A stretch of DNA of 64,000 nt, taken from IMG/VR virus record IMGVR_UViG_3300029537_000168. The stretch is one strand, 5' to 3'. Shown here in pieces: positions 106 through 60,626 of this stretch (positions are counted from its first letter, which is position 1; each line of letters begins with the position of its first letter). A model generated the notes under the pieces. It was not told where the DNA came from. It saw only the letters and a list, made by a program, of their open reading frames with translations, and ran no database searches. This DNA comes from a virus (Duplodnaviria > Heunggongvirae > Uroviricota > Caudoviricetes). Made by a program: the position numbers and the translations under genes.

Positions 106-1578
106 TTATGCTCGCAGATATGCAGGTTCGCGGAGCTGTAGGGGGAGCCTCCTTTTCGGATAGTACCTTTCCGGCGGTCTGAATATGGAAGCATAGTCGT
201 TCAGGTTTAGATATGATGTCTTGTTAGATTTGTATTTGCTTTTCAACACACAGATGAACCGGCCGTTCTTGTTGCGGAAATACAGCGATTCGGAGAATGT
301 TTCCATGGCTTTCCCGGCTATGCGCTTTTTGATGTTGAAGGACGCTGTTCCTTTCATCAGGCCGAAATAGCTGTTTATGCTTTGCATGACGTGTACGGCG
401 TTGCTGTACGACGGTATCCGGCTGTATTCTTCTATCGCTGTATGGAGGGCATGTACTGTGCGGTTGGATATGTAGATACGGTTCAGCTTTACTACCTCTC
501 CGCAGAACTTTACTCCGTGTGAGGCCGGCTGTATGTAGAATTTATCGGGATGGACTTTTAGTTTCAGCCGTCCGGTCGCTTTTATGAATACTTTCCGGGC
601 ATGGATTATTTCGGCTGCTGTTTCTGCCACCACGCATATATCATCTACAAACCGTGTGTATCTCACTCCGGTTTTTATCATTTCCGCATCAGCTTCCGCC
701 ATGACGAGGTTTGCGAGGAGTTGGGAATAGAAGTTTCCTATCGGGAGTCCTTTATCGGGTGGAAGTCCGAAGAGGCTTTTGTTGGGCGGAACTTTATCCC
801 ACATTTTTATATCGGAGCGTCGCTCGCAGTCTGTGGCCGGATTGTGCTGTATCAGGGTGTGAAGCAGAGAGAGTTTTTCTTCTTTATCAGGCTTATCGTA
901 GTACATATCGGCGTATTTCCGCAAGATGCGGTATGCTGTTTCCTTGTCTATCGACATAAAGAAGCCTGATATGTCCATTGTGGCTACGAAGGCTTTCTTC
1001 CTGTAGCCGTCCGTTACATCACGGATGTTCCGCTGTATCTGCTCGATGGCTGTAGATGCGGAATGTCCGATACGGTTGCCGTGGCTTACATCACCATTGG
1101 CTTCATGGACTTTCTCGCATATCTCGCCGAGCATCGGGGCAACGTAGTGGTGCACTATGCGGTCGGTGTAGTTGGCGGCGAAAACTTCCCTATACACAGG
1201 ATAATCGAGGACAAAGCAGATGCTTGTCTGTGGCTGGTAGCCGTTGTCTATTCTGTTTATCAATTCATAAATACGCGACAGGTTGAAATGAAACGATGCT
1301 GCTTCGAGCGATGCGTGCTTGTTTTTGTAACAGTCGCTTTCGGCAGCTATCCAGGCGGGCACTTTTTCTGATAAATCGGAGGCCGGCACCACACTATAGG
1401 TGTTGTTCGTGTTGTTGTTGTTCAAGTTGCCATTGCCCATGTTCACATACCAGGCGTTGTTGCCATTGTTGCGGACACAGCTCCAGACGTTTCCGCCCAG
1501 GACTTCTGCCCTGTTAATCGAAATAGCTTGCTCACCGCAAGCACAGGGACCTTTATCATTAAACAGTTCTGCCGACAT
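106..1578 (-). CDS. DGR reverse transcriptase (bRT-like). The catalytic protein probably starts downstream of the TR, about 106..1370, and the ORF-track N-terminus reads through the TR in frame.
   Basis: RT palm motifs in the translation: FGLPPDKGLPIGNFYSQLLANLVMAEAD and YTRFVDDICVV (YxDD). It lies immediately downstream of an A-rich template repeat that matches the 3' end of the neighbouring tail-fibre gene. Confidence 0.85.
   Translation of the reverse strand: MSAELFNDKGPCACGEQAISINRAEVLGGNVWSCVRNNGNNAWYVNMGNGNLNNNNTNNTYSVVPASDLSEKVPAWIAAESDCYKNKHASLEAASFHFNLSRIYELINRIDNGYQPQTSICFVLDYPVYREVFAANYTDRIVHHYVAPMLGEICEKVHEANGDVSHGNRIGHSASTAIEQIQRNIRDVTDGYRKKAFVATMDISGFFMSIDKETAYRILRKYADMYYDKPDKEEKLSLLHTLIQHNPATDCERRSDIKMWDKVPPNKSLFGLPPDKGLPIGNFYSQLLANLVMAEADAEMIKTGVRYTRFVDDICVVAETAAEIIHARKVFIKATGRLKLKVHPDKFYIQPASHGVKFCGEVVKLNRIYISNRTVHALHTAIEEYSRIPSYSNAVHVMQSINSYFGLMKGTASFNIKKRIAGKAMETFSESLYFRNKNGRFICVLKSKYKSNKTSYLNLNDYASIFRPPERYYPKRRLPLQLREPAYLRA
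1377..1503 (-). repeat. DGR template repeat (TR), 127 bp
   Basis: 127/127 alignment to 2021..2147 with 10 mismatches. All 10 are T on the plus strand, which is A on the coding strand, and they fall in AAC (Asn) codons: NNGNN...GNGNLNNNNTNNTY. Confidence 0.85.
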
Positions 1579-1581
1579 AGT

Positions 1582-1935
1582 TCAAGACTTTTCGGATCTG
1601 ACATTCTTTATCCTCGCAAGCGAAGATAAAATATTATCGCACAAAACGTCTATTACAGACGCTTTCTCTTTGCTGCATCCTCCAAGAGCCACTATCAGGT
1701 ATATCCCGAACTGCAATTCGTATGTCAGTTCTGTAGCTCTTTTATAATAGTCCATTCCACGAACCTGGCGCATAGCGTAACTAAAAAGCAATGCGCCTTG
1801 CTTCAGCATAGGATCTATATATGTTCTGCTTATGACTTTATAAGCTTTGCTGTTGATTTCTATGAGACAATTATTCAGGCGTATAACGTCCTGAATAATT
1901 GGTGCGTCCAAATGTTTCCTCCCGGATCTATTCAT
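1582..1935 (-). CDS. DGR accessory variability determinant (Avd-like four-helix-bundle protein), putative
   Basis: 117-aa ORF placed exactly between the target gene/VR and the TR/RT, as in the canonical mtd-avd-TR-brt order. It is basic and helical, and its similarity to Avd is weak and positional. Confidence 0.45.
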   Translation of the reverse strand: MNRSGRKHLDAPIIQDVIRLNNCLIEINSKAYKVISRTYIDPMLKQGALLFSYAMRQVRGMDYYKRATELTYELQFGIYLIVALGGCSKEKASVIDVLCDNILSSLARIKNVRSEKS

Positions 1936-1985
1936 TTCTATTGTCGCGTATTAAATGTTAATATATTTTAATGCAAAAGTTGATG

Positions 1986-2004
1986 AGCCGTGCTCCGCAC
2001 GGCT
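1986..2004 (-). other. GC-rich hairpin immediately 3' of the VR (DGR homing-associated stem-loop)
   Basis: agccgtgc-tcc-gcacggct is a perfect 8-bp stem with a 3-nt loop, 9 nt downstream of the target stop codon. It is present next to the VR only, not next to the TR. Confidence 0.5.
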
Positions 2005-2012
2005 GAGATAAA

Positions 2013-3428
2013 TCAAAAAGCGGAGGCCGGCACCACACTATAGGTGTTGAACGTGTTGTTGCCGATCAAGTTGCCAACGCCCATGTTCACATACCAGGCG
2101 CTGTTGCCACCGTTGCGGACACAGCTCCAGACGTTTCCGCCCAGGACGCCAGGTATGCCCCATTTTTCATAACTGTTAAGATAGTTTATCAATCCTGAAA
2201 TTATGCTTTTATTAGTCCAGTATGGGTATAATTCTTTTTCTCCTGCCATGTATTTCCCAAGGGACTTAATGTAATACACCGCGTGAGAATCTGCCATATT
2301 CCAGTCGTAATTTGTACCAGAATTTCCCGGTCTGCTTATGTATGGGGTAATGATATACCAATACCCGTCTACAGTTATGGCTTCCGCTCCTTTTGCGCCC
2401 GGAGAAAGAAGAGGTCGTTCGGCGGAGTTTACTCCGGTGTCGTTCATGTTTACACCGTTTGTTTTCTGCTGTTCGTACAGCCATTCAGCGTATTCAGGTT
2501 TGAAATAGTATGCGTTGTTTACTGAATACTTATTATTTGTATTGTACATTGCTTTCAAACCTGTGTTCTGGCCGTTTACGAAGAAAAACATATCTTCGCC
2601 TGCCTGAGCCTGTACGCCTGATGAATTTAGGATTTCCACATTGGTTATTGTGCCTTCTGCTTCAGAAGATGCTATGCCGCTACAGATGGCAAACCTGTGG
2701 CGAAGCCATTCATTCTGTACATACATGGCTTCAAGACGTCCGGCGTAATTATCCGCTATCATAGCATTTACATTGCCGCAATTCTTTTCCATTATCCAGC
2801 GTTGCTTGGTATTACCGCTGTAAAGTTCAAGCTTATCGTCTTCAGTTACGGTTACGCTCCAGTCGGCTGCAAAGTGACTTCCTGCGGCGTGAGTACCAAG
2901 GTTTTCATCCACAGTTCCATGATAATCTGTACCCTCGCGCGCTCCAGTCATCTGGTCGTATTCAAACACGGAGTGTTGCATCGAGTTTGACGATTTGCTT
3001 GTACTGCCGGACGTGGCGTAATATTCTCCCTTCCACGGCCAATAAAGAATGGCTCTGATACCGTTACATTCCAAAGAAAAACCTACAGGAGGAGCAATGA
3101 GTTCATTGTCAAAGCCATTTGCCACACTTCGGTCGTTCCATTCTTTTACTGTGTAATGTTTCAGGTCTGCATCTACAATCTTGATATGGTCGTTTGTAGC
3201 TACGGCTGCCGTCTTGCCTTCTTTTGTTGTGATGGCTGTGGAGCGTACCGGCAGTATCAGCATTTGCGATTCAAGGGCGTATTCGTCCCCTGTCGGAATG
3301 GCTGCTATTTTAGCCGGGTATTCGGAAAGGATTTCTCCTACATTTTCTACACCCTTTGCCTCTATGGCGGCCTTTATTGCGGCTTTGCTTTCTTTCAGTT
3401 TGTTAAGTTTATCTGCTGTCGTTCCCAT
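2013..3428 (-). CDS. DGR target protein: phage tail-fibre / receptor-binding protein with a C-terminal variable (C-type-lectin-fold-like) region
   Basis: 471 aa. The C-terminus VLGGNVWSCVRNGGNSAWYVNMGVGNLIGNNTFNTYSVVPASAF is the VR translation. It lies in the late gene cluster. Confidence 0.8.
   Translation of the reverse strand: MGTTADKLNKLKESKAAIKAAIEAKGVENVGEILSEYPAKIAAIPTGDEYALESQMLILPVRSTAITTKEGKTAAVATNDHIKIVDADLKHYTVKEWNDRSVANGFDNELIAPPVGFSLECNGIRAILYWPWKGEYYATSGSTSKSSNSMQHSVFEYDQMTGAREGTDYHGTVDENLGTHAAGSHFAADWSVTVTEDDKLELYSGNTKQRWIMEKNCGNVNAMIADNYAGRLEAMYVQNEWLRHRFAICSGIASSEAEGTITNVEILNSSGVQAQAGEDMFFFVNGQNTGLKAMYNTNNKYSVNNAYYFKPEYAEWLYEQQKTNGVNMNDTGVNSAERPLLSPGAKGAEAITVDGYWYIITPYISRPGNSGTNYDWNMADSHAVYYIKSLGKYMAGEKELYPYWTNKSIISGLINYLNSYEKWGIPGVLGGNVWSCVRNGGNSAWYVNMGVGNLIGNNTFNTYSVVPASAF
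2021..2147 (-). repeat. DGR variable repeat (VR) at the 3' end of the target gene
   Basis: Counterpart of the TR. Substitutions occur only where the TR has A on the coding strand, giving N>G, S, V, I, G, F changes. Confidence 0.85.
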
Positions 3429-37140: not shown

Positions 37141-37386
37141 ATGAGAATTAAAGAATTGTTGCGAGAAAAAGGAATTACCGCAAAAGAACTGGCTTCTAAA
37201 ATCGGTATGACTGAAACTGGGTTAAGTATCGCTATGGGAGATAATGGAAACCCACCATTAAAGAGATTAGAACAGATTGCCACCGCTTTAGGTGTGCCAG
37301 TAACAGAACTCTTTGATAAACCCAAAGAGGGAGTTATACACTGTCCTCACTGCGGTAAGGAGATAAAATTGAATCCGAATGTTTAA
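37141..37386 (+). CDS. XRE-family HTH regulator with a C-terminal CxxC zinc ribbon (Cro-like)
   Basis: MRIKELLREKGITAKELASKIGMTETGLSIAM...CPHCGKEI. Confidence 0.7.
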   Translation: MRIKELLREKGITAKELASKIGMTETGLSIAMGDNGNPPLKRLEQIATALGVPVTELFDKPKEGVIHCPHCGKEIKLNPNV

Positions 37387-37402
37387 TTTTAAATTTAGAA
37401 TT

Positions 37403-38062
37403 ATGAGAAAAATACTATTTATTTTATTGCCCACGTTTTTACTTGTGGGCTGTAAATCTCGCGAAGAAAAGGTAGCAGAACTTATAAAACAAGAAATGTT
37501 CAAAACCCTTTATGATTTTGAGAGTTATGAACCTGTTGAAACTAAAATAGATAGTGCATTTACATCTATATATACAGATTCAGTAATCAAATCTTATGCT
37601 TATATAGCACGCTCATTTCTCGATGACGTACAAGAAGGACTTGATAAAGTAAAAGATGCGCAAAGAACAGCAGAAATATGGAGAGATAGCTATTCATCTT
37701 ATGGGAGGGGCAAGTATGAAGAAGCATACAATGAAATGAGAGAACATTTAGATGAAGTTAAATCAAAAATGAGTATTGTAAATGGTTATACAGATTCAAT
37801 AAGAAATGCTTCTGTTGGCTTTAAACCTGAATTTTGCGGATGGAGGGTTAAACATAGATTTAGATGTAAAACCAAAGGTGGTAATTTTGATTTAGGCGAT
37901 TATATTTATATTGTTGATAAAAGAGTAACTAAAATTATATATAAAGAAGACCCTGATGATGAATATACTAAAAAAGTAAATGGGTTAATTGAAGAAGCTG
38001 TTAGTTCAAAAAATGAACAGGAAGAAACTGATAGTGTTAGTGGTGCAACATCAAATATTTAA
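37403..38062 (+). CDS. Lipoprotein
   Basis: MRKILFILLPTFLLVGCKS signal peptide plus lipobox, in an AT-rich segment. Confidence 0.6.
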   Translation: MRKILFILLPTFLLVGCKSREEKVAELIKQEMFKTLYDFESYEPVETKIDSAFTSIYTDSVIKSYAYIARSFLDDVQEGLDKVKDAQRTAEIWRDSYSSYGRGKYEEAYNEMREHLDEVKSKMSIVNGYTDSIRNASVGFKPEFCGWRVKHRFRCKTKGGNFDLGDYIYIVDKRVTKIIYKEDPDDEYTKKVNGLIEEAVSSKNEQEETDSVSGATSNI

Positions 38063-38140
38063 ACACGATTATTCCAGCCCCGTTCCTTATGGTTCGGGGC
38101 TTTATCCTCTAAGAATCAAAATAGAGAAAGGAAAATAACC

Positions 38141-38689
38141 ATGACAACAAACGAAATAGACAAATTAAGCCTTGAAAAAGCCCATGCCTTATTTGAAACA
38201 GGTGATATAGATAAAATTGGAGTAGGAACGGTGAAAGGATTGTGCGAGATTCACCGCTACTTGTTCGATGGCTTGTATGACTTTGCCGGAAAGGTACGTA
38301 CATTGAACATCGCCAAAGGAAACTTCCGTTTTGCCAACTGCTTGTATCTTGATGCAATTCTCCCGGTTATAGAGAAGATGCCGGAAACGACATTTGATGA
38401 AATCATTGCCAAATATGTGGAAATGAATATCGCCCATCCATTTATGGAAGGCAACGGGCGAGCCACCCGTATTTGGCTGGATATGATATTGAAAAAACGT
38501 CTGAAAAAAGTAATAGACTGGCGCAATGTGGATAAAAACCTGTATCTACAAGCTATGGAACGCAGCCCTATAAATGATTTGGAACTCCGGGTATTGTTGC
38601 AACAGGCATTAACAGACCAAGTAGATGACCGTGAAGTAATATTCAAGGGGATTACTCAATCTTACTATTATGAGGGATATGAAGCATAA
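38141..38689 (+). CDS. fic: Fic-family protein, class III (C-terminal inhibitory helix), putative AMP-transferase
   Basis: Catalytic motif [12 protein letters not shown] matches HPFx[DE]GNGR. The C-terminal [11 protein letters not shown] matches the [ST]xxxE[GN] inhibitory motif, and 182 aa is the NmFic size class. Confidence 0.8.
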
Positions 38690-39618: not shown

Positions 39619-40056
39619 TTACTTGATTAGTCCTTTGGATTTCAATCTTTCTACGATTTGGCAGTAAAGGTACTCTATATCCTGCCGGAAATCCTTATAC
39701 TGCTGGTAGATAAAGGAAACATCAGCGATATTGTTTGATATTACACACGGAGAAACATCCGGGAACACGCCGGAAATTTCTGCTCGGATACCGTTCGGCA
39801 GCCGTCCGCCGGCAAGCACACTAGGGGCGAACAAGAACAACACAATGAAGAGGAACTTCTTTCGCTGGGTAACACTTTCCGGATTGGGCGGACAATCTGC
39901 CCCGGAAAGTATCTCCCTGAACCACTCATAAATCTCCGGGATGAGAGAAAAATCAGTCAGGATAGGGGAGGATAACTCCTGCTCGCGTTCTGATAATCTT
40001 GATTTCTGTTCACGTATTGATTTCAACTCCACGATTGATGAAAATTCTTTTGTCAT
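39619..40056 (-). CDS. Hypothetical protein
   Basis: 145-aa ORF. Confidence 0.45.
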   Translation of the reverse strand: MTKEFSSIVELKSIREQKSRLSEREQELSSPILTDFSLIPEIYEWFREILSGADCPPNPESVTQRKKFLFIVLFLFAPSVLAGGRLPNGIRAEISGVFPDVSPCVISNNIADVSFIYQQYKDFRQDIEYLYCQIVERLKSKGLIK

Positions 40057-40095
40057 AGCACGATTTATTTAGTTGGAAATTCTTATATTTGCATC

Positions 40096-40147
40096 ATAAT
40101 CGTGTGGGGGAGTTGGCTTCTAATCGTGTGGGCTGGCTCCCTTTTTT
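40096..40147 (+). ncRNA. Candidate small RNA or terminator unit: two copies of the TAATCGTGTGGG motif inside a 10-bp-stem hairpin followed by T6
   Basis: gggagttggc (40108..40117) pairs with gctggctccc (40132..40141) using 3 G-U pairs, followed by tttttt. The motif shared with 36256 and 59493 starts at 40096. Confidence 0.35.
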
Positions 40148-40150
40148 ATT

Positions 40151-40507
40151 TTATGCCAAGTGATATGCATTCAGGATGGCGAAAGCGTAGATGATAACCG
40201 TTACCAGACTGTCCAGGAACACCGCCCATGCTCCTAGCTTTTGGATCTGGCTGAAGCTCATGACCAGGACAACAAGGAAACACACCCACTGGCTTGAAAA
40301 CAATCCCATCCCCAGCAATAAAAGTCCGATGGTATCCATGAAGAATGCAACATGAAGCCATGGATGCGCCATCAGATACCAGCTTTTTGCTGTCTTATCC
40401 AGCTTCTGAAAGACTTTTACATGTCGGTATATGGATTTACATTTGAGCAGCTTCACAAGCTCGTACAGGGCTTGTATGATGATTAAGGCGTAGAATGCGT
40501 GTTTCAT
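40151..40507 (-). CDS. Small membrane protein (3 predicted TM helices)
   Basis: 118 aa with hydrophobic segments. Confidence 0.45.
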   Translation of the reverse strand: MKHAFYALIIIQALYELVKLLKCKSIYRHVKVFQKLDKTAKSWYLMAHPWLHVAFFMDTIGLLLLGMGLFSSQWVCFLVVLVMSFSQIQKLGAWAVFLDSLVTVIIYAFAILNAYHLA

Positions 40508-40509
40508 GG

Positions 40510-41115
40510 TCAGTAGTTTTTATCTCCATGCTTGTACGGACGAAGTTCATTGTATTTTATTTTCTGCTTGATGTGCCAGAAGATGTCGATATTTCTATCC
40601 CGGCAGAAAGCGAATATCTCATTCAGGAGGATAAATGGTTCATCCCTGTAGAAGTTGTCGGTGACATAGACGCAGATTCTAAACATGGACTCCGTGAAGG
40701 TCATATCAGAATAATCTTCCGTATCGCTTCCTTCGTAGTCAAAGCTATCCAAATCATATCCTCTCAATCCAGCCAAATCCAGCAGACGGATGCAGGCATC
40801 GGCAAGTTCTTCCTCGACAGTCCCTTTGATAAATGCCTCAAAGTATTCCATGAATCTCCTTTTCCTAGTTTCTTCGGTCAATGGGACGCTATTCCCTTGC
40901 CATTCTTTGAACATTGCAACTTTCGCATGTTTCCCTTTCCGGTCTGCTTCCACAGCTTCCATAAGTTCGGATATGACCAGGCAGAGGAAATGTTCGTCAC
41001 TCAGGTTCTCTTCGTGCCATCCGTGGGCTACTGCGCACTGGTAGGCTTTATCTCTCAATTTGTTTAAGTTTATAATTTCTATATTTATGACATTTTGACA
41101 TCGTTTCTCTGGCAC
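40510..41115 (-). CDS. Putative MazG-like nucleotide pyrophosphohydrolase
   Basis: Helical region HFLCLVISELMEAVEADRKG resembles the EExxE/D metal-binding helix. The call is weak. Confidence 0.35.
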   Translation of the reverse strand: MPEKRCQNVINIEIINLNKLRDKAYQCAVAHGWHEENLSDEHFLCLVISELMEAVEADRKGKHAKVAMFKEWQGNSVPLTEETRKRRFMEYFEAFIKGTVEEELADACIRLLDLAGLRGYDLDSFDYEGSDTEDYSDMTFTESMFRICVYVTDNFYRDEPFILLNEIFAFCRDRNIDIFWHIKQKIKYNELRPYKHGDKNY

Positions 41116-41154
41116 ACATATTGTATGCCCATAGTATAATTTAATTATATCTAT

Positions 41155-41469
41155 ATGAATGAATTTGATTCTTATAAGAATGATTTTGGTTTTGAAATAG
41201 GCTCTGGATTCTCAGGAAACTCTGATTACATGAAGGCTCTGGATGAGAAGAAAAGACGCGCTCTCATGGAAGAGCAATACAACTTTCTTCAAATTCAGAA
41301 ATCAGAAATCCTCGCCCAACAGAAATATCGTGAGTTGCATCAGAAGGAAATCCTTGCTCAACAAAAATACCGCGAAGAGCAACGTAAAGGGGCCAATTTC
41401 GATAAATGGCTTCTAATTTTTAATACTATTATAGCCATTGCATCATTATTGGTATCTATATTCAAATAA
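41155..41469 (+). CDS. Small tail-anchored membrane protein with the duplicated EILAQQKYRE repeat
   Basis: 104 aa with a C-terminal TM helix LLIFNTIIAIASLLVSIF. Confidence 0.35.
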   Translation: MNEFDSYKNDFGFEIGSGFSGNSDYMKALDEKKRRALMEEQYNFLQIQKSEILAQQKYRELHQKEILAQQKYREEQRKGANFDKWLLIFNTIIAIASLLVSIFK

Positions 41470-41555
41470 AATACCCGGTCACCGCCACAAAGCAGTTACC
41501 GGGTATTCACAAAGCACTGACAAGGGTTGTCAGTAAGATTGGAAAATTTTAATGA

Positions 41556-42110
41556 TTACCGTACCAGTCTAACTGGTAATTTAAATCCGCAAAACACGCC
41601 AATTTTTGAGTTGCTACTAGAAGTGAGACATGCACTCGTTTTATAATTAGCCTTATTATCATTTAACAACCAAAAATAGGAAGAATCTTGATTCATAATA
41701 ACATTAAAACCAATCTTACCCGTTTTATTAAAAGTCATCATAGTGCCATTAACACCAAGAAAATACACTCCACTGTATTGGTTAAGATCATCCTTAAAAC
41801 CTCTTCTCAAACAAGCTAATATCAACTCATTATATTGTTCTATTGTTGGTATTTTATATTGCAAAGCTTCATCATAAGTAAAATAACAGATTTCTCCATT
41901 TTCATCTCTCAAATAATCAGATGCCCATAAAGTCCCGCTCGACAAACCAAGGTCAACAAATTCCGCATCATTACATCCTATTTGAGCATTTTCTTGACCG
42001 CTCTTATAACCATCTTTGTATCCATCTATATATGCCTGAGCAATGGCCTTTGTTATAGCTTCATTTGCTTTCCCATCAGCATAAGAGTTTGCTTTTTCTT
42101 GAATATCCAT
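41556..42110 (-). CDS. Hypothetical protein
   Basis: 184-aa ORF with the motif AYIDGYKDGYKSG. Confidence 0.45.
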   Translation of the reverse strand: MDIQEKANSYADGKANEAITKAIAQAYIDGYKDGYKSGQENAQIGCNDAEFVDLGLSSGTLWASDYLRDENGEICYFTYDEALQYKIPTIEQYNELILACLRRGFKDDLNQYSGVYFLGVNGTMMTFNKTGKIGFNVIMNQDSSYFWLLNDNKANYKTSACLTSSSNSKIGVFCGFKLPVRLVR

Positions 42111-42320
42111 ATTAGTTCAAATTATCATAGTTTACACTTGTTACAAACTTCGTAAGTTTTGTTTGAATGAACAAATAAAAAGGAAAATTTTATCCATTTA
42201 AGCCCATTATGATTTGTCTAGAATTATAATCACGATTATGTGTTTATAACTTATTTATTTTTATTTGTTGATTCTCATATTTTACTTATAATTTTGTTGA
42301 AACGATACAAACTTATAGTT

Positions 42321-43733
42321 ATGGAACTTATACCAATAAAAAACGAACTTAAATCTTTCAAAGACCATCTTGATATTAACGAACGTACCGTTTTCTCAGC
42401 CAAATTTGGAGACGGGAAAACATACTTTTTAAATGAATTCAAAAAGAAATATGGAGATAGTTATGAATTTATTACCATATATCCGGTTAATTATCAGATA
42501 GCTGATAATAAAGAGGTTTTTGAGTATATTAAAAGAGATATTCTTATACAAATGGTTTCAAAGAAAATGATAGAGCCATCTTATGAAATCCCTGATTCAC
42601 TAATATTCCAATTCTTTATTATGCAGAATTCTGACTCATTCTTGGGTAATCTATTAAAAATACTACCAAGTCTAGGTGTTCCAGAACAAACAGCATCTCT
42701 TTTCTTAGCTGGATACCATGCTTTAAATTGGTCGAAAAAGATGGCTAAAAAATATAAAGAATATAAGGACGCAATTCAAAGCCAAGATGAGAATCAAATT
42801 ATAGCAACCTTTTTAGAATCTTTTTCAAAGAGAATAGGAAGTCCTTATGAGATTGATTTAATCACTCAAATTATAATTGATAATATTCAATGGTTCTGTA
42901 AAAGCAACAACAAAAAAGTTATTTTAATCATCGAAGACTTGGACCGTATGGATCCTGCTCATCTATTCAGAATTTTAAATATTTTCTCTGCACATATTGA
43001 CAGAGTATACCAATATCAAAACAGTAGTACTCAAAAAGAAGAAGATACTACATATTCAGAATTATTGCCAAATAAATTTGGATTTAACAATATCATAACA
43101 GTATTTGATTATAATAAAACTAAAAGTATTTTCCAGCATTTTTATGGACAAGAGGCTAACTATGATGGTTATATCAACAAATTCACATCCCATCAACCAT
43201 TTTTCTATTCTATAGATGAAATAGCACGTGAATATTTATATAAAGTTATATCTGAAAAATGTTGCATAACAAAAGAATCTATCAGGCATATTTCAAAACA
43301 AATTAACAACAAATTTGATTCATTGTCAGTAAGAGATGTAAATACGATTTTAAACGGAATAGATTTATATATTCAAGAAGATATTTACAAATCAGGCACT
43401 ACGGAATTTAATACAAAGTCTCCTCTAACTTATACTATTGCAATGTTTAAACTATTAGGTTACTCAAATACAGATATCAGGAGATATATTTTAAGCTTGT
43501 CAAAATCGGATTTATTAAACTGTATAAATGTGTTTTTATATATCCGTCCAGATGTTTCAGCTAATTCCTTTACATTTCATGATATATCATATATTATTAG
43601 AATTCCTTCAAGCGATACTATCAATAAAATTCAAATAAAACCTGGGCATGACCATAGTGGATTTCATTTAATATTAACAGAAGATGATATAAATAAATGT
43701 TTAGACAGAGCATTTGATTATATCATCAAATAG
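42321..43733 (+). CDS. KAP-family-like P-loop NTPase (candidate abortive-infection / defence moron)
   Basis: Walker A FSAKFGDGKTYF and Walker B KVILIIEDLDRMDP (the DLDR signature of KAP NTPases). It is extremely AT-rich compared with its neighbours, and its orientation is opposite to the surrounding genes. Confidence 0.6.
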   Translation: MELIPIKNELKSFKDHLDINERTVFSAKFGDGKTYFLNEFKKKYGDSYEFITIYPVNYQIADNKEVFEYIKRDILIQMVSKKMIEPSYEIPDSLIFQFFIMQNSDSFLGNLLKILPSLGVPEQTASLFLAGYHALNWSKKMAKKYKEYKDAIQSQDENQIIATFLESFSKRIGSPYEIDLITQIIIDNIQWFCKSNNKKVILIIEDLDRMDPAHLFRILNIFSAHIDRVYQYQNSSTQKEEDTTYSELLPNKFGFNNIITVFDYNKTKSIFQHFYGQEANYDGYINKFTSHQPFFYSIDEIAREYLYKVISEKCCITKESIRHISKQINNKFDSLSVRDVNTILNGIDLYIQEDIYKSGTTEFNTKSPLTYTIAMFKLLGYSNTDIRRYILSLSKSDLLNCINVFLYIRPDVSANSFTFHDISYIIRIPSSDTINKIQIKPGHDHSGFHLILTEDDINKCLDRAFDYIIK

Positions 43734-44164
43734 TCATAGATTTCCTTGTTTGATATAAAGGAAACTGGAACTTTTATTTTATACTCCCCAAAACCAAGTT
43801 TTCCTTTCACATTTTGAATCGGCTTATCAAATAGTACTGCATCTTTCAGCACCCAGTTCCAGCAACCTTTCTCAGCCCAGACTGAAGGATGGTTCTGTAC
43901 GCAGTCAGCTATTACCACGCTGCCGATAATGACACCACGAGGTAACTTGTTGCAGTCTACACCTGCTAATTCTGAAGGATGAACTAGAATTTGTACTCTT
44001 TGCTCACTGTTCATTATCCAACCTACTCCCTTACTGTTACTTGCATGTATTAGCACTCTTTGTCCAATGTACTTCTGAGGACACTTCCAAGTCCGGTTCT
44101 CGATGTCTTTGATACCGTGAGCGATTAGGCTCGCCCACGGCTGTTTGATGGATATTGCTTTCAT
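43718..44164 (-). CDS. ASCH-domain protein
   Basis: MKAISIKQPWASLIAHGIKDIENR is an ASCH/PUA-like N-terminus. Confidence 0.55.
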   Translation of the reverse strand: MKAISIKQPWASLIAHGIKDIENRTWKCPQKYIGQRVLIHASNSKGVGWIMNSEQRVQILVHPSELAGVDCNKLPRGVIIGSVVIADCVQNHPSVWAEKGCWNWVLKDAVLFDKPIQNVKGKLGFGEYKIKVPVSFISNKEIYDYLMI

Positions 44165-44375
44165 TTTTTGTTATTTTTAAATTCAAACATTATATTTGCG
44201 CTATAATCAAGGTTAAACGTAGGGCTATGCTTGATTTCAGTCCATTCTTTTGGTTGCTCATTGCCTACCTTTTTCCAGTTTGCAATGGCTGAGATTAGCG
44301 CGTATAATTTCATAAAAAACTTAAACGATATGGATAGTTTTGGAAAACTTTTAAAGAGGTGGGTTTGTAGCACGC

Positions 44376-44467
44376 TGGGCAGTACTCGACTTTGAATGAA
44401 ATGAGCTGGAACTTCATGACCTGAAATTTAATAGCGCTACAAGGGGTTCGATTCCCTATCTGCCCAC
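44376..44467 (+). ncRNA. tRNA-like small RNA (noncanonical, about 92 nt) ending in a T-arm and acceptor stem
   Basis: 5' tgggcag pairs with 3' ctgccca as a perfect 7-bp stem. T-arm GGGGTTCGATTCCC is present, but the D and anticodon arms do not fold canonically. Confidence 0.35.
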
Positions 44468-44472
44468 ACTTA

Positions 44473-44507
44473 AAGACTGCTCTAATTCTAGGGCAGTCTT
44501 TTTTTAA
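44473..44507 (+). terminator. Rho-independent terminator directly after the tRNA-like element
   Basis: aagactgc-tctaattctagg-gcagtctt hairpin followed by ttttttt. Confidence 0.6.
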
Positions 44508-44752
44508 TCCTCCAGTAAATCCAATATGCGAAAAAGTGCTCCTTCAAGAACAGACACCCTGTCCTCCATGTCATTTCTGTAATCTTCATATTCTTGGTCC
44601 TCATAGAGTGTCTCACACCCTTCATTTTTTGATGTTGAGTATTCCAATGATGTGTGACATATATCTGCAATATCACCAAGAACTTCATTAACAGGCTTAT
44701 CGCCTAACATGGTTTCAACAGTTGTTTCAATTTTCACTTTTACTTGTTTCAT
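44504..44752 (-). CDS. Hypothetical acidic protein
   Basis: 82-aa ORF. Confidence 0.4.
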   Translation of the reverse strand: MKQVKVKIETTVETMLGDKPVNEVLGDIADICHTSLEYSTSKNEGCETLYEDQEYEDYRNDMEDRVSVLEGALFRILDLLED

Positions 44753-44820
44753 AGCTCCTCCTTTCCACCTATCCCAGCAGCCACCACATGACTGCCAGGA
44801 ACAGGTAATATAGTTTTGTT

Positions 44821-45096
44821 TTACTCATTTCCATTCATTTTCTTATCCATCCATTCAACAGCATCCTGTATGGATGAAACCTTCTTAAACTCACGTGTAA
44901 CGCAGAACGTCATGTACTCACAGATAATTTCTCCCACATCATTAAAGTAAATGTTGTATGCTCCAGTGCTATTTGCTCCAGTACACGGTATCTCAAGTTC
45001 CAAAGCTTTCAATGCTTTTTCAGCATCACAAGTGAAGTAAGCATATATATCATGCGAAACCTCCTTGCATCCGGTTAATTTGACAATGTTTGCCAT
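44821..45096 (-). CDS. Hypothetical protein
   Basis: 91-aa ORF. Confidence 0.4.
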   Translation of the reverse strand: MANIVKLTGCKEVSHDIYAYFTCDAEKALKALELEIPCTGANSTGAYNIYFNDVGEIICEYMTFCVTREFKKVSSIQDAVEWMDKKMNGNE

Positions 45097-45097
45097 A

Positions 45098-45376
45098 TCA
45101 CTTTTTTGTTTTTAAATGTTTTCTGTATTTCACTGGTATAAATCGTTTGAGTTCCGGAAGCGAAGTAGAAACAATGTGCATCCATGCGTTCCACCTTTGT
45201 CCGTCATGGTCTCTTGATGGTATCGAGCAGATTTGTCCGTAACAAGTTCCGTTCTTTCCTTCAGCCTTGCATTTCACACAGCACCCTTCACATCCGGATG
45301 AAAGATGGCAAAGGATGCAAGCCTGTTCTTTACTAATTCCATAATCCAAGTTTAAGGACAGTTGAGTTTCTTTCAT
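45098..45376 (-). CDS. Cys-rich small protein (possible zinc-binding)
   Basis: CILCHLSSGCEGCCVKCKAEGKNGTCYGQIC. Confidence 0.4.
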   Translation of the reverse strand: MKETQLSLNLDYGISKEQACILCHLSSGCEGCCVKCKAEGKNGTCYGQICSIPSRDHDGQRWNAWMHIVSTSLPELKRFIPVKYRKHLKTKK

Positions 45377-45894
45377 TGATTATTTCTCCTTCTTTCAACT
45401 AATAATTCCAACCGTTTCTCACACTCAGCACACTCGATTTTCTTGCGCTCAAACTTCTCCCGGAACTTAACAAGCTCCTCATCCGTGTTCTCATCAAAGA
45501 ACATGTTGTTCTGACGGTTGTGCTCGATGTACTCATTCATCTTGCGTTCTGCTTTTGTTATCTGGGCTTTGGCCGAAATCAGCTTAGACAGGCAAGAACT
45601 CACTTCAAGCGACTCTCCTGAACGCTTGTCGTAGAAGTACAGGCTTGTAGATACAATCTGTTTGGGGTATTGGCACTGTAATTTCGCCATCCTCCATCTG
45701 ATTACCCATTGGTACCGGAAATACATCTCACGGGGAAGATTGTAGTGATATAAGCTTACTTGTTTTTCTGCATATCCGTAGTAAATAGTTACTTCAACCC
45801 ATTGCTCAATCTTCAGTTCCCTTTCAGCTTTGGCCAAATCCTTAGCCATCTGGAACCAGTCATCCATACTTTCCTGCTTTCCCATATCATTCAA
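45373..45894 (-). CDS. Hypothetical protein
   Basis: 173-aa ORF with a C-terminal CAECEKRLE. Confidence 0.45.
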   Translation of the reverse strand: MNDMGKQESMDDWFQMAKDLAKAERELKIEQWVEVTIYYGYAEKQVSLYHYNLPREMYFRYQWVIRWRMAKLQCQYPKQIVSTSLYFYDKRSGESLEVSSCLSKLISAKAQITKAERKMNEYIEHNRQNNMFFDENTDEELVKFREKFERKKIECAECEKRLELLVERRRNNQ

Positions 45895-46303
45895 ATTTCA
45901 ATTCAAGTTGTGAGTAAGGTTCTTTATACTCAGGATTTGAAAAAAGGAAAGCATTTCTAAGCGCCTCTGAGATTCTTTCACTCATGTCCTTAGAAACATT
46001 GTTCTTGTCGGCATCACTGTTAACTAGCAAGCATCTTTCAAGGCTTCCATTGATAGGTTTCTCGTCGAAGAATAAGCTGTATTCAGTGAATATCCGGTTT
46101 TGCTGTTTACCTTCCTTTTCTTCTTCATTAGTCTGGCACCGCTCAAATACAGTGTCTTGAATTGTTCTCAGGCATCTTTGTCCTCTGTCACTTCTGCAAC
46201 CCATTCTATCATTCTCGAACACAACGGACAAAGCACGCTTTTTACGGACATTTCCTATTCTGGCCCACCCATAATACACTTTCAGTTCACCCATATCACG
46301 CAA
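45887..46303 (-). CDS. Hypothetical protein
   Basis: 138-aa ORF. Confidence 0.4.
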   Translation of the reverse strand: MRDMGELKVYYGWARIGNVRKKRALSVVFENDRMGCRSDRGQRCLRTIQDTVFERCQTNEEEKEGKQQNRIFTEYSLFFDEKPINGSLERCLLVNSDADKNNVSKDMSERISEALRNAFLFSNPEYKEPYSQLELKFE

Positions 46304-47972
46304 CCTTTCTTTTTCTTATAATCTCCTTACAGATAGCTTCACAAAGCACACGGGCCATATTCACCTCCACGGCGTTGCCGATGAACTTCTTCTGGTCTGA
46401 CTGTGGCCCAATCAGTACATAGTCTTCCGGGAATCCCATTATCTTTTTCAGTTCTGCTATCCGTAGCATACGCATCTTGATGTCGATGATACCATACAAA
46501 GCCATAAACTCCTTAATCTTGATTGTCATCGGACTGTCATCAGATGTAACTTGTATGCCGATACCTCCTTCAACCTCTACCAGATAGGGAGGCATCTTGT
46601 CCATCCGTGCTATCAGTGTAAAACAAGGATTGTTCACAGAACCTCCGGCACTGGCAAACTGCGGATTCATAAGGTAATGCCATTTACGGTTGGCCGTGAT
46701 TGTTTGTGACGGCTGTTCTATGCTGCTTCCTACATTTGAGAAAGCTGTGTTCATTATCCACGGTTTGCAGCTTACCATATTGAACTTCGGCACCGTGGTT
46801 ACTGTACCAACTGGCAGCTCAATAGATGTCGGTTTTCCGGTACCGTATTGGTTGTCTATGAAAACAGAATTTACCAATGCCAACCTGTCTTTAGTCGTAA
46901 CTGTCGGAGCTGGAAGTTCTACAGAATGGTTATGACCATTCCCGTAATAGGCTGAGACGAAAGCGTGGTGGTCTTTACAGGTGATAGTTCCGGAAGGTCC
47001 TTCCACAGATATGTTCTTGCTATCTGGATGGCCGCTGAATTGCTTGGAAAGAAAGTTTACCTTAGCTAAAGCCAACCATCCTTGTGTTGCCACAACCGGG
47101 CATGGCTCGTCAACGCTTGGTGCCTGGTATTTCCCCGTCCGACTCATAGAGTTATACTTTACAATAAAAGCCTCCTTACCTCCAGCTACAAACTTAATCA
47201 GTCCGGCATAGATGCGTTCAAGGGTTTTCTCGGCCAGCGGCTTCTTCCGGCAAAAGATACTTTCTCCTTCATCTGAAAAGTTCAGCACTTCCTTGACCGG
47301 CTTCCACTTTTCCAATCGTCCAAACATATCGTTTTTCCCATACTTACAGTGAGTAGGTTCTGGAAATACAATCGGAAGTCCACGCTTGGCGAAGATACCG
47401 AAGAACCGCTTGCGAGTGGTGTATGCCCCATAATCGGCAGCGTTAAGAATGCGCCAGTCAAAATCGTAACCATATTTCCTGACGTTGCGTTTCCACTTCT
47501 CATAGCATCGCCCTTTATCCTTGCTGATGGGGTGCCCTTTTTCATCCATATCGCCCCATGACATGAACTCCTCAACATTCTCTATCTGTATGTAGTCTGG
47601 AACAATAGCCTCGATATATCGGAAAAGATGCTCAGCCAGCGTCCTACTATCGGCGTCCCGTGGCTGGCCGCCCTTGGCTTTACTGAAGTTCGTACATTCA
47701 AGGCTGGCCCATAATACAACCAGTGCATCCGGATAAATCTTCTTCATTCGTTCTACATGGGCCACCAAAGGAGATAGTTCCAAAGTTCTGATGTCCTCCG
47801 TGAAGTGGAGCGCATCCGGGTGATTTGCCGCATGGCTGGCGATGGCGTTTGCATCGTGGTTTACACAAGCGACAACTTTCGCACATTGTTCATCTTCGTA
47901 GCGTGCGTTTTCTACTCCGGTACTGGTTCCCCCAGCACCGCAGAAAAGGTCAATATAGAGTAATTTTATCAT
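46296..47972 (-). CDS. DNA (cytosine-5)-methyltransferase, orphan
   Basis: Motif I DLFCGAGG, motif IV-like region with ENV, and TTRKRFF (QRR-like). 558 aa with a long target-recognition region. No adjacent restriction gene is recognised. Confidence 0.8.
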   Translation of the reverse strand: MIKLLYIDLFCGAGGTSTGVENARYEDEQCAKVVACVNHDANAIASHAANHPDALHFTEDIRTLELSPLVAHVERMKKIYPDALVVLWASLECTNFSKAKGGQPRDADSRTLAEHLFRYIEAIVPDYIQIENVEEFMSWGDMDEKGHPISKDKGRCYEKWKRNVRKYGYDFDWRILNAADYGAYTTRKRFFGIFAKRGLPIVFPEPTHCKYGKNDMFGRLEKWKPVKEVLNFSDEGESIFCRKKPLAEKTLERIYAGLIKFVAGGKEAFIVKYNSMSRTGKYQAPSVDEPCPVVATQGWLALAKVNFLSKQFSGHPDSKNISVEGPSGTITCKDHHAFVSAYYGNGHNHSVELPAPTVTTKDRLALVNSVFIDNQYGTGKPTSIELPVGTVTTVPKFNMVSCKPWIMNTAFSNVGSSIEQPSQTITANRKWHYLMNPQFASAGGSVNNPCFTLIARMDKMPPYLVEVEGGIGIQVTSDDSPMTIKIKEFMALYGIIDIKMRMLRIAELKKIMGFPEDYVLIGPQSDQKKFIGNAVEVNMARVLCEAICKEIIRKRKVA

Positions 47973-59494: not shown

Positions 59495-59558
59495 AATCGT
59501 GTGAGGGTTAGTTGTTTTTTACTATATTTGTTTCGTATCTAAGTTTCGATATGCAAAT

Positions 59559-59610
59559 GTACTTTATAATTCTAAAGTATCAAATAAATAGCTTTAGAAT
59601 TATAAAGTAC
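59559..59610. promoter_or_regulatory. Operator-like 19-bp inverted repeat (gtactttataattctaaag ... ctttagaattataaagtac)
   Basis: Perfect inverted repeat separated by 14 bp, in a divergent promoter region. The 26-bp left arm is repeated at 60601..60626, immediately upstream of the repressor gene. Confidence 0.6.
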
Positions 59611-60518: not shown

Positions 60519-60600
60519 GGGTGTATATATTAAACCTCCTCGGAGGAATGTTTAACCAACTTGTTCCTTTAACACCTCGTACTTGTTACGGTACAAAGAT

Positions 60601-60626
60601 ACTTTATAATTCTAAAGTATCAAATA
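60601..60626. promoter_or_regulatory. Second operator copy (actttataattctaaagtatcaaata)
   Basis: Identical 26-mer to 59561..59586, located 15 nt upstream of the repressor start codon. Confidence 0.6.

Follow-up and report, generated by a model that had tools for sequence, protein, structure and literature searches.

A compact KAP-like NTPase of temperate Bacteroidales phages as an accessory gene and candidate defence gene

PifA of the F plasmid, the archetype of the KAP P-loop NTPases, excludes phage T7 by abortive infection and is triggered by the T7 proteins gp1.2 and gp10. PifA carries no transmembrane (TM) helices (PMC13001434). In Tmn, variable 'arm' regions bind phage RIIB, and the output is raised ATP turnover with no classic effector domain. 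Proteins of the EF_KAP class are encoded by single antiphage genes and join a KAP P-loop NTPase to a region of unknown function (PLoS Biol 2026, PMC13552941). EF_KAP itself, with two TM helices and a C-terminal region of 322 aa, needs both its Walker B motif and that region and does not act by abortive infection; three proteins from gut metagenomes that likewise pair a KAP domain with an unknown region were validated alongside it (PMC13552941). PifA, Tmn, EF_KAP and these three proteins are experimentally validated single-gene defences in which the Walker motifs are needed. RdrA (of RADAR), QatA (of QatABCD) and Tmn form ring oligomers, and QatA binds DNA. Here we analyse a KAP-like NTPase gene in the viral record IMGVR_UViG_3300029537_000168 (Caudoviricetes), a stretch of 64,000 nt that we call the window, and weigh whether this gene serves in defence.

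The KAP-like gene and its product

The gene lies on the plus strand within an intact open reading frame (ORF), and the 470-aa product that an initial annotation had assigned to it was confirmed, most likely from an ATG at 42321. The positions that matter for the gene and its product are as follows.

42240..43733, plus strand: KAP-like NTPase ORF, intact; 497 aa if read from a GTG
42240..42320, plus strand: in-frame 5′ extension of the ORF from the GTG start, probably not translated, holding the candidate promoter
42264..42296, plus strand: Bacteroidetes-type promoter candidate, with −33 TTTG, a 21-nt spacer and −7 TAATTTTG, ending 25 nt before the ATG
42321..43733, plus strand: coding sequence of the KAP-like P-loop NTPase, ATG start, 470 aa plus stop
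42399..42422, plus strand: Walker A (P-loop) AKFGDGKT, aa 27-34, within the Pfam KAP_NTPase match
42573..42833, plus strand: helical insert in the NTPase domain, aa 85-171, with six helices in the AlphaFold2 (AF2) model and two unrelated forms among alleles
42918..42956, plus strand: KAP-type Walker B, aa 200-212 (VILIIEDLDRMDP), followed by HLFRILN, from the alignment of homologues
43221..43730, plus strand: helical lid (aa 301-350) and C-terminal alpha/beta domain (aa 351-470), family-specific and variable; proposed specificity module

Translation almost certainly begins at this ATG, because the N terminus of most of 32 aligned homologues falls at the residue matching M1 (four have N-terminal extensions), the 27 codons upstream have the character of hydrophobic, AT-rich read-through, and a promoter motif, TTTG-N21-TAATTTTG, lies inside them. 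This pattern occurs six times in the window, against 1.39 expected. Of 14 diverse alleles and lineages, co-oriented ones included, 10-11 have a −7 box of the form TAnnTTTG 25-34 nt 5′ of the ATG; the background of this box is 0.59 per kb per strand. The box upstream of most KAP alleles indicates autonomous transcription, from what appears to be a promoter of the gene's own. Elsewhere, near the right end of the window, the Bacteroidetes promoter pattern also picked out two near-identical 31-nt sequences (TTTGATACTTTAGAATTATAAAGTA..TTTG), promoter-like and separated by 1,040 nt, on the minus strand at 59554..59584 and 60594..60624.

The low GC content and the orientation against the neighbours that the initial annotation had remarked on both held up. 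GC is 0.279 in the gene and 0.219 at third codon positions (GC3), against 0.412 for the window and 0.41-0.47 for the backbone neighbours, and the immediate neighbours on either side (41556..42110 and an ASCH-domain gene at 43718..44164) are on the minus strand. Compared with four other alleles, the gene has a ratio of nonsynonymous to synonymous substitution (dN/dS, Nei-Gojobori) of 0.12-0.25, and its family counts more than 3,300 homologues and is present in hundreds of metagenome samples. By these measures of the sequence, it is a real, constrained coding sequence.

The Walker A and KAP-type Walker B motifs recognised earlier are near-invariant in the 32 diverse homologues. In Walker A, S26, A27, G30, D31, G32 and K33 are invariant and T34 nearly so; in the Walker B core LIIEDLDRMDP (aa 202-212), E205, D206, D208, R209, D211 and P212 are invariant. 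Both elements of the KAP signature are present: a Walker A of the GxxxxGK[ST] type (AKFGDGKT) and a Walker B of the hhhhDDLDR..P..FR type (LIIEDLDRMDPAHLFRIL, aa 202-219). The Pfam KAP_NTPase profile (PF07693) scores the window protein at 18.3 bits (E = 0.0015), below the gathering threshold of 20, but matches 21 of the 32 relatives at E ≤ 0.01, the best at 4.5e-6. Several relatives carry a precomputed PF07693 assignment, and for one the source record gives the name 'KAP family P-loop domain'.

An AF2 model built from the family alignment (predicted local distance difference test score, 82.5; predicted template-modelling score, 0.79) shows an NTPase core of the ASCE type whose two Walker motifs are separated by an insert of six helices (aa ~85-171); aa 227-247 form a disordered loop, and a helical lid (aa ~298-350) is followed by an alpha/beta domain at the C terminus (aa 351-470). 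Foldseek placed RdrA of RADAR first in the PDB, with probability up to 1.0 but low template-modelling scores (0.24-0.33); next came HslU and McrB, which are AAA+ proteins that carry domain insertions. Among viral structural models, the top match (BFVD, probability 1.0) bears the annotation 'KAP family P-loop domain protein'. Together with the profile matches of the relatives and a Walker B resembling that of PifA, these results support the assignment to KAP-like P-loop NTPases. The protein is likely a member of this superfamily, in a divergent and compact form with an AAA+/STAND-type fold.

TM insertions typical of KAP proteins, which the initial annotation had suggested looking for, are absent: no TM segment was found in the protein, the maximum Kyte-Doolittle mean over 19 residues being 1.26. 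It is predicted to be soluble, with the modelled six-helix insert standing where many KAP NTPases carry TM helices. The C-terminal half (aa 296-470) matched only 14 representatives among 1.84 billion proteins, all of them C termini of the same family. No Pfam domain was matched in this half, and PDB sequence searches with the family profile and with the C-terminal half gave no match. In the model, aa 351-430 give the impression of a winged helix, as in modules that combine a nucleotide-binding, a helical and a winged-helix domain (NBD-HD-WHD). INPHARED phages yielded no match to positions 40000-46000 by megablast or to the protein by tblastn. On the profile searches described here and below, the protein falls outside every named defence family.

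Distribution, company and module exchange

The window represents a temperate siphovirus-like phage, with genes for terminase, portal, major head protein, tape measure and Ant, and its siblings comprise viral contigs of IMG/VR as well as prophages within assemblies of Phocaeicola and Prevotella. Loci retrieved through the KAP protein always showed the gene in one slot, between a trio of MazG-like pyrophosphatase, 118-aa and 145-aa genes and the replication module. Since sampling loci by the protein itself is circular, we anchored loci on backbone genes instead. With the backbone gene p145 (39619..40056) as anchor, a first lineage comprised 80 IMG/VR sibling loci, 60 of them with both anchors; a KAP homologue was present in 8 of the 80 and in 4 of the 60. 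About 90% of siblings whose helicase, p194 and p77 genes are 90-100% identical lack the gene. Where it is present, backbone genes (helicase, p194 and p77 among them) are 90-100% identical in loci whose KAP alleles share only 45-79%.

A second lineage, anchored on the upstream gene c1, gave 73 eligible loci: 34 contain a KAP cassette of ~1.6 kb, about 34 an empty site of 20-26 nt, and 5 other cargo. The homologue of this lineage has 489 aa and is 38-42% identical to the window protein, and the cassette has a GC content of 0.276, against 0.38-0.39. Several lineages carry the KAP gene on the strand opposite to its neighbours; in the second lineage it is co-oriented, between DnaB and the genes for a TET-associated glycosyltransferase (TAGT) and terminase. 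Presence/absence polymorphism among near-identical phages, deviant GC and a predicted promoter box of its own are the marks of a moron, and the description of the gene as an AT-rich moron on the opposite strand was sound. We conclude that it is, with little room for doubt, an accessory KAP-like NTPase moron.

The glycosyltransferase gene of the second lineage (Pfam TAGT, 1e-32) lies just 3′ of the KAP slot and is preceded by a gene for a 261-aa protein of unknown function (L211:7531-9154 and siblings). Its presence suggests that these phages may hypermodify their DNA.

In sibling phages, the same slot or region holds other genes. These encode AbiGi (PADLOC 9e-48; Pfam 2e-42), AbiH, putAbiC, a 985-aa protein with HD-CE and GHKL ATPase domains, DUF2806, an 817-aa unknown protein, a TM protein with pentapeptide repeats, and a pair of multi-TM 159-aa and 287-aa proteins; SocA_Panacea and DUF4160 occur near the KAP slot. 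The variable region from the pyrophosphatase to the replication module is an Abi-rich hotspot in this phage family. Cargo in the window and in the sibling loci is located as follows.

L040:7717-8451; L027:5409-8366; L061:5954-8407; L069:8384-9883; L343:5702-7729; L335:8056-8570: variable-region cargo loci
37379..38689, plus strand: opposite-strand cargo pair, a 227-aa lipoprotein-like ORF (37379..38062) and Fic (38141..38689)

The Fic protein is of the NmFic type (NCBIfam NF046029, 1e-91; PADLOC candidate system PDC-S04, 1e-95). Siblings carry at its position an AAA_21/SMC_N 353-aa and 240-aa pair, an AAA_15 433-aa and 205-aa pair, or an HTH and 281-aa pair.

Among GTDB representative genomes, the KAP-like family is widespread in Bacteroidota and occurs in a few Firmicutes. 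Type I or Type III restriction-modification (R-M) genes lie within four genes of the homologue in at least 12 of 77 chromosomal loci; several of these KAP genes are flanked by hsdR and hsdS at distances of 0-4 nt, or come right after a Type III res gene. DUF2971 and VapE-like genes are recurrent neighbours. As a separate observation, longer homologues (587-601 aa) were seen inside Type I R-M operons of Cytophagales, Crocinitomicaceae and other Bacteroidota metagenome-assembled genomes (L160, L162, L165 and L169). In two of these (L162 and L169), intervals of 0-4 nt separate the KAP gene from hsdR on one side and hsdS on the other, an arrangement that recalls PrrC-type genes in hsd loci.

The alleles are mosaics. 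One (P0035) is 87-95% identical to the window protein over aa 1-300 and 23-33% identical beyond, while two others (P0045 and P0047) carry an unrelated insert (12-15% identity) together with a lid and C terminus at 69-86%. Across alleles whose lid (aa 301-350) is 60-90% identical to that of the window protein, identity in the insert drops to 12-18%. By segment, dN/dS (Nei-Gojobori) was 0.03-0.09 in the NTPase core and highest, 0.25-0.35, in the C-terminal domain; synonymous divergence (dS) was discordant among segments, by up to nine-fold within one allele pair. Positive selection at points in the sequence was considered and rejected: no segment has dN/dS above 1, and recombination explains the variation better. 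The pattern, as far as these comparisons go, is one of purifying selection on a functional protein combined with recombination mosaicism, rather than decay or simple positive selection. Divergent alleles, swapped modules, a constrained core and a relaxed C terminus are typical of immune sensors.

Candidate role, alternatives and neighbouring genes

The Abi genes that share the slot and the homologues in R-M operons favour the proposal, made in the initial annotation, that the gene is a candidate for defence; by guilt by association, it is probably, though far from surely, a gene for defence or for conflict between mobile genetic elements. The most likely job of the moron would be to protect the lysogen, and hence the prophage, against other phages or mobile elements. 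By analogy with PifA, Tmn, EF_KAP, RdrA and QatA, the product may be a single-protein sensor-NTPase whose conserved core (K33; E205/D206/D208/R209) acts as an NTP-driven switch or motor and probably assembles into a ring, as RdrA, QatA and Tmn do. Specificity would lie in the two parts that recombine independently, the insert (aa 85-171) and the lid with the C-terminal domain (aa 301-470), which would recognise a component of the invader. Recognition could then trigger NTP hydrolysis, either draining ATP or remodelling or sequestering the replication or packaging machinery of the invader; protection might come through abortive infection, as with PifA, or without it, as with EF_KAP. The output step is the weakest part of this proposed mechanism because no effector domain is recognisable.

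A number of results weigh against a defence role or against close kinship with the known defence proteins. No PADLOC v2.0.0 model matched the window protein at E ≤ 0.1, although the library may not include models for tmn, RdrA, QatA and PifA; no model matched any of the 32 family members beyond two chance-level matches; and NCBIfam and PHROGs gave the window protein no assignment. Its Pfam KAP match is below threshold and spans only profile positions 26-174 of 293. An hhalign comparison with PifA aligned the Walker B block only (KVILIIEDLDRMDPAH..LFRIL with KFIVVMDDLDRLEPSQ..VFRLV; probability 11.6%), so the similarity is remote. Neither an effector domain nor a TM segment was recognised in the protein, and no neighbour of the gene is conserved across the phage and chromosomal (n = 77) loci. 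The gene of the second lineage runs in the same direction as replication and packaging genes. Finally, the link to defence is one of company, which is not proof, and moron slots hold non-defence cargo too.

A more far-reaching form of the proposal is doubtful. It holds that the ~470-aa, soluble, effector-less NTPase would by itself be a complete immune module of abundant human-gut Bacteroidales prophages, with the insert and the lid/C-terminal cassettes as a combinatorial sensor and NTP hydrolysis as the sole output (ATP drain as in Tmn, or remodelling of the replication or packaging complex of an invader). Across Bacteroidota, prophage hotspots would share this module with Type I/III R-M operons, and it would form a minimal, uncatalogued branch of NTPase immunity that is absent from PADLOC v2.

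Rather unlikely, in our estimate, is the alternative that the gene is accessory and of benefit to the phage without being anti-phage: a counter-defence gene, an NTPase for host takeover or lysogeny maintenance, or a modulator of host physiology (lysogenic conversion). Such a role would suit a variable accessory gene with a predicted promoter of its own and no match to a known defence family, carried by a phage whose Fic gene and diversity-generating retroelement (DGR) attest to diverse cargo. Anti-defence genes evolve fast and also cluster in variable early regions of phages. However, defence islands fit better than anti-defence because chromosomal homologues lie within Type I/III R-M operons and beside DUF2971. 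The slot-mates, moreover, are Abi genes, and the characterised prokaryotic KAP/YobI NTPases in the literature searched all act in defence.

We regard it as very improbable that the gene is primarily a selfish cassette of little benefit to host or phage, either an NTPase that acts in addiction or like a toxin, or a mobile gene that spreads among phage genomes into fixed intergenic sites. Clean presence and absence with identical junctions in two lineages and the AT-rich, foreign composition would agree with this, and KAP genes (PF07693), described by Aravind and colleagues in 2004, are reportedly plasmid-borne, sporadically distributed and often disrupted. Yet no nuclease, integrase or transposase accompanies the gene in the loci examined, and no antitoxin-like partner was found in the phages, a ~70-aa upstream ORF being confined to some chromosomal loci. 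The strong purifying selection on the core, together with modular, sensor-like variation, argues for a selected function.

Least probable of all is a replication or packaging ATPase that handles the phage's own DNA (an ORC/Cdc6-like initiator, a helicase loader or a TnsC/MuB-like DNA-bound AAA+ protein): Pfam ORC3_N matches 4 of the 32 family members (E = 3e-4), the gene sits in the early/replication region and lies in the second lineage co-oriented between DnaB and terminase genes, and QatA, also a KAP NTPase, binds DNA, but ~90% of siblings that share the replication module at 90-100% identity lack the gene, as does about half of the second lineage with its clean 20-nt empty sites, the window gene is AT-rich, on the opposite strand and apparently under its own promoter, distant homologues are found within R-M operons and not in prophages, and the phage already has replication proteins of its own, among them a DEAD-box helicase, AAA_24 and NinG. 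A conserved replication ATPase of the ORC/Cdc6- or DnaC-like kind was rejected on the backbone-anchored presence and absence, because the gene is accessory in both lineages. The initial annotation had named such an ATPase, combined with a lack of any KAP match, as the outcome that would speak against it; we found instead a weak KAP match and a gene carried by 8 of 80 relatives.

Three genes beside the KAP-like gene were considered as partners.

41155..41469, plus strand: 104-aa tail-anchored repeat protein, with a C-terminal TM segment (Kyte-Doolittle 2.34) and a tandem EILAQQKYRE repeat
41556..42110, minus strand: 184-aa uncharacterised phage protein (p184), a neighbour outside the system
43718..44164, minus strand: ASCH-domain protein (Pfam ASCH, E = 2.4e-6), convergent with the KAP-like gene, its 3′ end overlapping the KAP stop by 16 nt

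The small flanking genes of the initial annotation, for the 104-aa and the ASCH proteins, do exist, but they occur independently of the KAP-like gene and are not its partners. The 104-aa protein is a separate opposite-strand moron, present in 16 of the 60 sibling loci irrespective of KAP, and the ASCH gene is a semi-conserved backbone gene found in 41 of the 60, again independent of KAP. Among sibling loci, 4 of the 8 with KAP and none of the 72 without KAP carry the gene for p184; it too was rejected as a partner, since loci anchored on p184 lack KAP and most KAP loci lack p184. No RdrB, QatB, QatC or QatD was found near the gene or its homologues in the phage and chromosomal loci. In ~11 of the 77 chromosomal loci, an ORF of ~65-76 aa (M..FIELH...P[IV]L[IV]N...ESY..[IV]K) lies directly 5′ of KAP and overlaps its start by 0-9 nt. 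These ORFs (L100-L128, for example L107:7719-7943) are translationally coupled and have no Pfam match; they could encode a regulator or antitoxin-like partner of their chromosomal sub-branch. Searches of the window and the sibling phages by tblastn and with a hidden Markov model did not find this ORF.

Two further elements of the window were noted.

106..3428, minus strand: DGR, with a reverse transcriptase ORF (106..1578; PHROG 1423, 2e-50) and a 117-aa ORF (1582..1935)
46296..47972, minus strand: 558-aa C5 cytosine methyltransferase, variable among siblings

The template repeat of the DGR (1373-1503) and its variable repeat (2017-2147; 131 nt), at the 3′ end of the target ORF 2013..3428, differ at 11 positions, and in all 11 an adenine of the template is replaced by G, T or C. 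The target is a 471-aa protein with no PHROG match, whose C terminus is encoded by the variable repeat. In siblings, a PcfJ/PcfK pair, an N6/N4 methylase with a C5 methylase, or an insert that contains an integrase takes the place of the C5 methyltransferase.

Defence in gut Bacteroidales and their temperate phages has been studied far less than in E. coli or Bacillus. The KAP-like family is large and uncatalogued in PADLOC v2, NCBIfam and PHROGs, and it marks two cargo hotspots of prevalent gut phage lineages. Should the gene prove to act in defence, the newly recognised KAP NTPase defences would gain a compact branch without TM helices, its natural module swaps would offer a system for mapping how such NTPases recognise phages, and it would help to explain patterns of superinfection immunity that bear, in Bacteroides, Phocaeicola and Prevotella, on phage therapy and on engineering of the microbiome. 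If its role lies elsewhere, it is still a well-delimited, mobile and constrained NTPase cassette whose function is worth knowing.

Comparison with described NTPase defences

The claim in the initial annotation that a single-gene KAP system had not been described is out of date, because single-gene KAP/YobI defences on mobile elements, the PifA, Tmn and EF_KAP class, have been published. Our literature search found nothing that links KAP NTPases to Bacteroides prophages.

Compared by description, EF_KAP and the window protein are alike in being encoded by lone genes and in their layout, with a KAP-type NTPase at the N terminus and, after it, a region in which no known domain is recognised. For both, there are examples from human gut metagenomes and an association with variable regions linked to mobile elements. 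EF_KAP differs in its two TM helices and its 322-aa C-terminal region, whereas the window protein has no TM helices and only ~170 aa after the core. The examples of the EF_KAP class come from Enterococcus, Faecalibacterium and Lachnospira, whereas the window gene belongs to a Bacteroidales phage.

Like the window protein, PifA is encoded by a single gene on a mobile element, has no TM helices and carries a KAP-type Walker B (hhhhDDLDRxxP...FR). The two differ in size and in their fit to the family: PifA is 741 aa long and fits the Pfam KAP profile in full (3e-43, positions 2-290), whereas the 470-aa window protein reaches 18.3 bits over positions 26-174. PifA is co-transcribed with its repressor PifC, and the window gene has no such partner. 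Orthology with PifA was rejected, as hhalign aligns the Walker B block alone.

Tmn shares with the window gene the form of a single-gene NTPase defence, a candidate one here, in hotspots of mobile elements. Variable parts that sense a phage protein, and ATP turnover as the output, would be further points in common. Tmn differs in having two TM helices inside the P-loop domain, in forming a membrane decamer and in exporting Mg2+, whereas the window protein is predicted to be soluble. RdrA has ~800 aa and works with the deaminase RdrB, and QatA works with QatBCD, whereas the window gene has no such partners nearby. Single-gene KAP/YobI NTPase defences on mobile elements are already described; the Bacteroidota family analysed here stands beside them as a candidate that is uncatalogued, compact and TM-less by prediction, with two clean phage hotspots.

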